24,712 nucleotides of DNA from a virus. Its lineage: Duplodnaviria; Heunggongvirae; Uroviricota; Caudoviricetes. Shown here one piece after another: positions 16,630-18,093 of the stretch. The stretch lies in IMG/VR virus record IMGVR_UViG_2541047887_000002. One strand, 5' to 3'. The notes beneath the pieces were generated by a model. That model saw only the letters and a program-made list of their open reading frames with translations. It searched no databases and was not told where the DNA came from. How positions within the stretch are numbered: the first letter of the stretch is position 1; each line of letters starts with the position of its first letter. Both the position numbers and the translations under genes were made by a program.

Positions 16630-16632
16630 CTC
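16630..16632. repeat. Target-site duplication CTC, left copy
   Basis: Identical 3-bp CTC flanks both IS ends (16630-16632 and 17883-17885). Confidence 0.7.
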
Positions 16633-16704
16633 TGAAGTGGTTTACTGAATTTGGCCACCTGAACAGAGGTGATATGCTCACCTCAGAACAACACAGGTGC
16701 CATA

Positions 16705-17007
16705 ATGAAAAAAAGAAATTTCAGCGCAGAGTTTAAACGCGAATCCGCTCAACTGGTCGTTGACCAGAATTACACCGTGGCAGATGCAGCCAGCGCTATG
16801 GATGTCGGCCTTTCCACAATGACGCGATGGGTGAAACAATTACGTGATGAGCGGCAGGGAAAAACACCAAAAGCCTCCCCTATTACCCCGGAACAAATTG
16901 AAATCCGTGAGCTCAGGAAAAAGCTACAACGTATTGAAATGGAAAATGAAATATTAAAAAAGGCTACCGCGCTCTTGATGTCAGACTCCCTGAACAGTTC
17001 TCGATAA
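16705..17007 (+). CDS. IS911 OrfA (helix-turn-helix and leucine zipper)
   Basis: 100-aa ORF from ATG 16705, ending ...[18 protein letters not shown]. Confidence 0.9.
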
Positions 17008-17852
17008 TCGGGAAACTCAGGGCGCGTTATCCTGTGGCCACTCTCTGCCATGTGTTCGGGGTCCATCGCAGCAGCTACAAATACTGGAAAAACCGTCCTG
17101 AAAAGCCAGACGGCAGACGGGCTGTATTACGCAGCCAGGTACTTGAACTGCATGGCATCAGCCACGGCTCTGCCGGAGCAAGAAGCATCGCCACAATGGC
17201 AACCCAGAGAGGCTACCAGATGGGGCGCTGGCTTGCTGGCAGACTCATGAAAGAGCTGGGGCTGGTCAGCTGTCAGCAGCCGACTTACCGGTATAAACGT
17301 GGTGGTCATGAACATGTTGCTATCCCTAACTACCTTGAACGGCAGTTCGCCGTGACCGAGCCAAATCAGGTGTGGTGCGGTGATGTGACCTATATCTGGA
17401 CGGGTAAGCGCTGGGCGTACCTCGCCGTTGTTCTCGACCTGTTCGCAAGAAAACCAGTGGGCTGGGCCATGTCGTTCTCGCCGGACAGCAGGCTTACCAT
17501 GAAAGCACTGGAAATGGCATGGGAAACCCGTGGTAAGCCCGTCGGGGTGATGTTCCACAGCGATCAAGGCAGTCATTATACGAGCAGGCAGTTCCGGCAG
17601 TTACTGTGGAGATACCGGATCAGGCAGAGTATGAGTCGGCGTGGAAACTGCTGGGATAACAGCCCAATGGAGCGCTTCTTCAGGAGTCTGAAGAACGAAT
17701 GGGTGCCGGCGACGGGCTATGTAAGCTTCAGCGATGCAGCTCACGCAATAACGGACTATATCGTTGGATATTACAGCGCACTAAGACCGCACGAATATAA
17801 TGGTGGGTTACCACCAAACGAATCGGAAAATCGATACTGGAAAAAACTCTAA
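16705..17852 (+). CDS. IS911 OrfAB transposase, made by a -1 frameshift at 16956-16962
   Basis: Heptamer A AAA AAG at 16956-16962. The -1 frame continues into the orfB frame, which carries a DDE integrase core and runs to the stop at 17850-17852. Confidence 0.85.
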
Positions 17853-18093
17853 CTCGGTGGCCAGTTTTTGTTGACCACTTCACTCCCCGTGCAGCCTTAC
17901 GACGGTCCTCTCTGATTTTGAAATACAGGTTAGTCAGATATGTCAGGAAGCCCAGAACCAGACTCCCCAGTACACCAATCGCAGCCCACTGTGACGGACT
18001 GACCTGATCAAGCCACTGTAAAAACCAGTAGCCAGCACTGCCTGCGGAGGTGCCGTAGGCAATGCCCGTTGAAATTTTATCCATGGATTTCAT
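17728..18093 (-). CDS. S: Phage-21-type pinholin (S21-like, MKSM dual start) with its last codon replaced by a 51-aa IS911-encoded extension
   Basis: ATG at 18091-18093 with a GGAGGTG Shine-Dalgarno. The first 70 residues ([30 protein letters not shown]...[10 protein letters not shown]) match the S21 holin. The frame then runs into the IS911 right end ([11 protein letters not shown]...). Joining the flanks with one CTC copy restores ...AARGE-stop. Confidence 0.8.
17883..17885. repeat. Target-site duplication CTC, right copy
   Basis: See left copy. Confidence 0.7.

Follow-up and report, generated by a model that had tools for sequence, protein, structure and literature searches.

ISEc52 disrupts the final sense codon of an S21-type pinholin gene in an Escherichia coli prophage: a lysis cassette probably modified rather than destroyed

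When an insertion sequence (IS) lands at the very end of a holin gene, does the prophage lose its ability to lyse the host, or does the lysis system remain in an altered form? This question is raised by a stretch of 24,712 nucleotides (nt) from an Escherichia coli prophage (IMG/VR record IMGVR_UViG_2541047887_000002), which was analysed at its full length and is referred to below as the window. Here, a complete IS separates the gene of an S21-type pinholin from the rest of the lysis cassette, namely the ydfR-like gene, the endolysin gene R and the spanin genes Rz and Rz1. Whole-locus, left-junction and right-junction queries were run against 5,426 complete E. coli genomes. We consider it very probable that the locus records a recent, strain-private transposition of ISEc52 into an S21-type cassette, by which the lysis system was modified and not destroyed.

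The boundaries computed from the sequence define a complete IS3-family element of exactly 1250 bp on the plus strand, bordered on both sides by the 3-bp direct repeat CTC (Table 1). The ends of the element are TGAAGTGG...CCACTTCA, and its left and right inverted repeats (IRL and IRR) have 25 of their 36 positions in common. The insertion point lies within the last sense codon (GAG, Glu71) of the pinholin gene, which is located on the minus strand, and the element is oriented antiparallel to the late operon. When the element and one CTC are deleted in silico, the sequence reads through a 71-amino-acid holin ending in RRKAARGE, a TAA stop codon, the spacer TTCA and the ATG of the ydfR-like gene (16620). 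The first-pass annotation of this locus had placed a complete 1250-bp IS with a CTC duplication in the holin gene, at its last sense codon, and this is borne out both by the computed boundaries and by the empty site described below. It had also described the restored junction as AARGE-stop followed 9 nt later by the ydfR-like ATG; the order of these elements holds, but the measured gap is the 4-nt TTCA, and the value of 9 nt corresponds to the GGAG-to-ATG spacing in the restored sequence, not to the stop-to-start distance.

An empty site is present in strain M1/5, which gives the best whole-window match among the complete genomes. M1/5 differs from the window by one mismatch in the 16,632 bp up to the element (1–16632) and by three in the 6,518 bp beyond it (17883–24400), that is, by 4 mismatches in 23.1 kb. 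At the homologous position, M1/5 holds the uninterrupted sequence CATTGAATTACTCTCCCCGTGCAGCC; the two flanking blocks abut there and share one CTC, and the window is longer than M1/5 by exactly 1253 bp, the length of the IS plus the duplication. The empty site and this exact difference exclude a chance match of the CTC repeats. In M1/5, the Prokaryotic Genome Annotation Pipeline (PGAP) annotates a class II holin of 71 amino acids, followed after 4 nt by a YdfR-family protein, a lysozyme and a lysis protein. Isolated E. coli phages, for example vB_EcoS-611R1, also have an uninterrupted S-ydfR-R-Rz cassette (97.6% identity). By the first-pass annotation, a naturally long holin C-terminus in related intact phages would have spoken against its reading; related prophages and isolated phages have the 71-amino-acid holin, and its presence in the isolated phages indicates that the long C-terminus is not a natural variant.

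The identical insertion was absent from the 5,426 complete E. coli genomes with all three queries, by which only the IS911 of strain VL7S7, 5 bp away, was returned, and a query in the opposite orientation returned a clade carrying ISEc52 in the ydfR-rrrQ spacer, which is not the site of the window. The exact 121-amino-acid fusion protein resulting from the insertion is on record in one public contig (GCA_000460235.1, KE701612.1), which is identical (100%) to the window across 12.4 kb. The near-identity of the window to the M1/5 prophage indicates a recent insertion that is confined to a single lineage.

Which element was inserted? It has the architecture of the IS3 family, with overlapping orfA (helix-turn-helix) and orfB (DDE/rve) frames, an in-phase A AAA AAG heptamer and a fused OrfAB of 382 amino acids, and its ends are imperfect 5'-TG...CA-3' repeats with a 3-bp duplication verified against the empty site. 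The names ISEc52 and IS911 used here are taken from the PGAP annotation of the compared copies. The window element is identical at 1250 of 1250 positions to the PGAP-labelled ISEc52 copies of AVS0947, M1/5 and MSB1_4E (loci L001, L006 and L007) and at 1248 of 1250 to the copy of CUPF12, whereas PGAP-labelled IS911 copies (L002 and L004) show 94.16% nucleotide identity (1177/1250, 73 differences), with 97 of 100 residues shared in OrfA and 286 of 300 (~95%) in the OrfB frame. By the ISfinder convention, isoforms of one IS share more than about 95% nucleotide or 98% amino-acid identity; the value of 94.16% lies under this threshold and thus indicates a separately named IS, not IS911. Judged against the PGAP-labelled copies, the element falls outside IS911 in the strict sense and within ISEc52 (RefSeq/PGAP label "IS3-like element ISEc52 family transposase"). 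The element was initially called IS911; its completeness, its ends and the CTC repeat were described correctly, but the strict name does not stand, and on sequence comparison the element is ISEc52, a close sister of IS911.

The likeness to IS911, originally from Shigella dysenteriae, extends to the length (1250 against 1249–1250 bp), the A6G −1 frameshift, the 36-bp inverted repeats beginning TGAAGTGG, the 3-bp duplication and the last 40 nt, which include IRR and are identical. The sizes of OrfA (100 amino acids) and OrfAB (382 amino acids) reported for IS911 (PMC2909936) are also those of the window element. The differences are the 73 nt, 3 of 100 residues in OrfA, 14 of 300 in OrfB, and positions 9–11 of IRL, which read TTT in the window element and CAC in IS911, with IRR the same in both. 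Compared with ISEc52, the window element has the same length and the same ends, and the insertion site alone is new. The "frameshifted" flag that PGAP attaches to ISEc52 copies corresponds to the programmed −1 frameshift, with the A6G site and both frames intact. The 100% identical copies at unrelated loci in several strains point to ISEc52 as a currently active element.

The effect on the holin can be read directly from its open reading frame (ORF), which consists of 70 native codons (17884–18093) followed by codons 71–121 derived from the antisense strand of the IS, with the TGA stop at 17730–17728. The earlier statement that the holin loses its terminal Glu and gains a 51-amino-acid IS-encoded tail agrees with this ORF. 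The tail (VKWSTKTG...RELHR) replaces Glu71 and contains 10 Lys/Arg, 4 His and 2 Asp/Glu residues. The dual starts Met1 and Met4 (MKSM) and both transmembrane domains are unaltered by the insertion. The match to PF04971 covers profile positions 1–63 of 64, and with the MKSM start and the restored length of 71 amino acids, the protein is classed as an S21-type pinholin. According to a systematic study of S21-68, the C-terminus is largely dispensable, its truncation leaves pore formation unimpaired, and truncated S21 fused C-terminally to oligomeric proteins still makes pores (bioRxiv 10.1101/2021.04.20.440580). Because this C-terminus is reportedly dispensable and tolerant of fusions, total inactivation of the holin would not be expected, with a change in timing or stability being possible.

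The clearest predicted loss concerns translation initiation of the ydfR-like gene. Its ATG now lies 1107 nt downstream of the stop of the fusion ORF, and the stop-to-start junction with the holin gene is lost. The sequence 5' of the ATG is changed from CACGGGGAGAGTAATTCA to CTTCAGAGAGTAATTCA, and the replacement of the Shine-Dalgarno (SD) sequence GGGGAGAG by CAGAGAG, pointed out at the first pass, is exact. The free energy of the predicted SD:anti-SD duplex changes accordingly from −8.5 to −3.3 kcal/mol. R starts 63 nt past the stop of the ydfR-like gene, and a Shine-Dalgarno sequence can be recognised for it neither before nor after the insertion; the translation of R should not be directly changed.

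As regards transcription, the coordinates agree with the earlier description, by which 1.25 kb of antisense IS sequence separates the holin gene from the ydfR-like gene, R, Rz and Rz1. The latter four are now preceded by ~1.1 kb of antisense IS RNA that is not translated. Lambdoid Q-modified RNA polymerase resists terminators. Since a strong terminator-like hairpin is located upstream of the holin gene (Table 1), the transcripts arriving there are presumably Q-modified and terminator-resistant. In the region of the antisense IS, 7 terminator-like sites were counted, compared with 4.7 ± 2.7 in shuffled sequence, a count within chance expectation, and the terminator scan found no convincing terminator on the antisense IS strand.

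The product of R is probably a signal-anchor-release (SAR) endolysin: its N-terminus is weakly hydrophobic and abounds in Gly, Ala and Ser (residues 5–27, mean Kyte-Doolittle hydropathy 1.3–1.9, 37–47% Gly/Ala/Ser), and it has a lysozyme domain and the E-x8-D-x5-T motif. Endolysins of this type are the usual partners of pinholins. They are released spontaneously, and without a holin, lysis occurs later and is less synchronous (PMC9239132). The cassette as a whole resembles those of phage 21 (S21-R21-Rz-Rz1), Qin (essQ-ydfR-rrrQ) and DLP12 (essD-rrrD) in that the restored 71-amino-acid MKSM holin is a full-length match to the Pfam family "Bacteriophage P21 holin S" and is followed by a DUF1327/YdfR gene, a SAR-like lysozyme gene and Rz with embedded Rz1. 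It differs from them in the 51 IS-derived codons that extend the holin gene and in the 1.25 kb by which it is interrupted.

We propose the following sequence of events. ISEc52 transposed into the pinholin gene at its last sense codon, duplicating the 3-bp CTC. Glu71 was exchanged for the basic 51-amino-acid tail, with the pinholin core, that is, both transmembrane domains and both starts, being kept. Q-modified RNA polymerase would read through the IS, the SAR-type endolysin and the spanins would lyse the cell even with a poor holin, and less YdfR-like protein would be made owing to the weakened Shine-Dalgarno sequence and the lost stop-to-start junction. The likeliest phenotype would be an altered or less sharp timing of lysis together with less YdfR-like protein, and altered or blurred timing is more likely than blocked lysis. 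For the prophage, such a mutation would be neutral to mildly deleterious, not a selected step of domestication.

Several points weigh against so mild an outcome. The tail brings a net charge of +8 to the cytoplasmic domain, and later triggering, a less stable protein or a loss of function could result; the tolerance data refer to S21-68 in an artificial nanopore screen with a tail other than that of the window. Two weak terminator-like hairpins are located on the antisense IS (17816–17801 and 17203–17187), and the untranslated 1.1 kb of RNA might recruit Rho or RNases in the event of incomplete Q modification. The assignment of R to the SAR type is made from its sequence features, and the size of the lysis effect in the source strain is what we infer, not what we observe.

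The main alternative is a substantial impairment or delay of lysis, owing to a non-functional fusion and/or to polarity on the ydfR-like gene, R, Rz and Rz1, by which the prophage would be trapped in a first step of domestication. The native holin C-terminus is indeed gone and a 51-amino-acid basic tail gained, but in S21-68 this C-terminus is dispensable and tolerates fusions. Similarly, the lysis genes further downstream now follow 1107 nt of antisense RNA that is not translated, but late transcription is presumably Q-antiterminated. The loss of the 4-nt holin/ydfR-like junction and the weakened Shine-Dalgarno sequence also speak for impairment, set against which SAR endolysins lyse without a holin, albeit later. 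As to domestication, the recurrence of IS911-group insertions in S21-type cassettes, one of them in 75 complete genomes, indicates that such insertions can persist; the present one, however, is private to one assembly and without accompanying decay, with 23 kb virtually identical to an intact relative. A private insertion without decay gives no indication of selection or of long residence, and overall we regard this alternative as unlikely. The first-pass annotation, which had suggested impaired or delayed lysis and a route to domestication, is plausible as to direction but probably overstates the effect.

Recurrence deserves separate consideration. In E. coli VL7S7 (NZ_CM177009.1; L002, 2466–3714), a true IS911 that is 94% identical to the window element is inserted 5 bp from the window's site in the same orientation. 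Its duplication is ATT (equivalent to ~16625–16627), and it lies within the holin stop/4-nt spacer and leaves the 71-amino-acid holin intact. In 75 complete genomes, several of them labelled O25b:H4-ST131, and also in ECC-1470, ISEc52 occupies the ydfR-rrrQ spacer, and it lies inside rrrD of CUPF12 and inside Rz of AVS0947. In the O121 strain 201805972, an IS911 has no duplication, and the stretch from the holin gene to Rz is deleted. All these IS911-group cases are at sites different from that of the window, and the holin protein itself is altered only by the window's copy. E. coli H105 (L020, 1859–3028) is one of the loci of recurrent ISEc52/IS911 in S21-type cassettes.

It could be argued from these cases that the holin/ydfR-like junction is a preferred target of the IS911 group and that lysis cassettes are hit by IS above chance because attenuated lysis benefits the lysogen. 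This hot-spot reading draws on the independent insertion of ISEc52 and true IS911 5 bp apart in the same orientation and on five or more additional cases, independent of one another, in which an IS911-group insertion or an IS-associated deletion affects this type of cassette; one of these is present in 75 genomes. We hold it to be rather improbable; the recurrence, including the neighbour at 5 bp, could justify a test for enrichment at the population level. A target resembling the IS ends was considered as the cause of the neighbouring insertions and rejected, since the similarity of the empty site (117 bp, both strands) to IRL and IRR at lengths of 12–36 was no better than that of shuffled sequence (366–1960 of 2000 shuffles reached the observed score).

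It is highly improbable that the assembly misplaced a multicopy IS in a draft scaffold. The sole record of the fusion protein is indeed the draft scaffold KE701612.1, and ISEc52 is multicopy in related strains, but a perfect 3-bp duplication surrounds a full-length element, which misplacement by an assembler would not create, the empty site differs from the window by exactly 1253 bp, and the count of N within the window is 0. Most far-fetched of all is an adaptive rewiring in which an outward promoter or regulatory effect of the IS alters expression of the downstream lysis genes to the advantage of the host. IS3-family ends can carry partial promoter elements, but on the minus strand no promoter-like site was found around the left end of the IS, which faces the ydfR-like gene, and the outward TTGACC in IRR reads towards the holin gene in the antisense direction and lacks a suitable −10 hexamer at 17-nt spacing.

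M1/5 also carries a 100% identical ISEc52 in the same prophage, just past the tail-fibre genes (L006, 2627–3876) and ~24.7 kb from the holin gene; this copy is flanked by AAT and GAA, without a clean 3-bp duplication. A local hop with an M1/5-type tail-end copy as the donor is plausible. Of two look-ups made to extend the source contig towards the integrase and this possible donor, that with the window's last ORF matched no record and that with tail protein L gave other strains only. That IS elements insert into prophage genes is commonplace and a familiar way in which prophages decay, and the present event is an ordinary one of an already-known kind, with both the element and the lysis cassette well characterised and with slight relevance outside the source strain. 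The allele can be seen as a natural experiment on the pinholin C-terminus, as M1/5 holds the isogenic intact cassette, and it is usable as a strain marker.

Table 1. Positions of the ISEc52 element, the lysis genes and the late-control features in the window.
Feature	Positions	Strand	Basis or remark
Endolysin R, 177 aa, SAR-like N-terminus, E-x8-D-x5-T from residue 35	15673..16206	-	PF00959
Rz i-spanin, 155 aa by the gene callers' start	15209..15676	-	PF03245, E 2e-49
Rz1 o-spanin inside Rz, 61 aa, lipobox VVSAC	15271..15456	-	Sequence
ydfR-like gene, DUF1327, 116 aa	16270..16620	-	Pfam; ATG 4 nt past holin stop before insertion
Left target-site duplication copy, CTC	16630..16632	.	Single CTC at the M1/5 empty site
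Complete ISEc52 (IS3 family, IS911-like), 1250 bp	16633..17882	+	Identity to PGAP-labelled copies
IRL, 36 bp, TGAAGTGGTTTACTG...	16633..16668	+	25/36 vs IRR; positions 9-11 unlike IS911
orfA, 100 aa, HTH_Tnp_1	16705..17007	+	PF01527, E 6e-14
orfB frame, rve integrase/DDE core	16950..17852	+	PF00665, E 1e-31
Slippery heptamer A AAA AAG, -1 frameshift giving OrfAB, 382 aa	16956..16962	+	Phase correct
IRR, 36 bp	17847..17882	+	Final 40 nt of the element identical to IS911
Right target-site duplication copy, CTC	17883..17885	.	Sequence
Interrupted S21-type (class II) pinholin gene, now 121 aa	17728..18093	-	PF04971 Phage_holin_2_1, E 3.7e-35
Strong intrinsic terminator-like hairpin with T8 run	18503..18520	-	Downstream of phage tRNAs, upstream of holin gene
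Antiterminator Q gene, late-gene activator	18995..19684	-	PF06323, E 8.5e-91

In the window, the minus strand carries the late half of an HK97-like lambdoid prophage, with the genes in the order RusA, Q, three tRNAs (18535–18784), terminator, STnc100, holin, IS, ydfR-like, endolysin and Rz/Rz1, after which come an HNH endonuclease gene, the terminase, the head genes and the tail genes. A YfbU-family gene (14242–14781) is located on the plus strand, opposite to its neighbours, with the lysis cassette on one side and the HNH/terminase genes on the other; it is conserved in the related prophages of M1/5, AVS0947 and MSB1_4E and looks like a moron-type insertion. The near-identity to M1/5 stops at 24400, and HR5-1 and HR12-1 match through 24712, which places a mosaic junction of the early region at 24400–24712. 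The integrase of the M1/5 prophage is annotated as frameshifted; the match to M1/5 ends at 24400, so this state is not transferable to the window.

Between the tRNA cluster and the holin gene, positions 18259–18458 (minus) give a full-length match to the Rfam small RNA STnc100 with 140 bits (gathering score 47), and a hairpin directly past its 3' end (18231–18250) was scanned as a plus-strand terminator. The phage tRNA trio comprises a CAT tRNA, Arg(TCG) and Arg(TCT). For the first of these (18709–18784, minus), the ARAGORN call is tRNA-Met (CAT) and the PGAP annotation in the corresponding prophage of M1/5 is tRNA-Ile, which points to a tRNA-Ile2 of the lysidine type. In the early/nin region of the prophage, an Rfam match to the sok antitoxin RNA (21694–21868, minus, 112 bits) adjoins a hok-family toxin gene, together forming a hok/sok type I toxin-antitoxin module.

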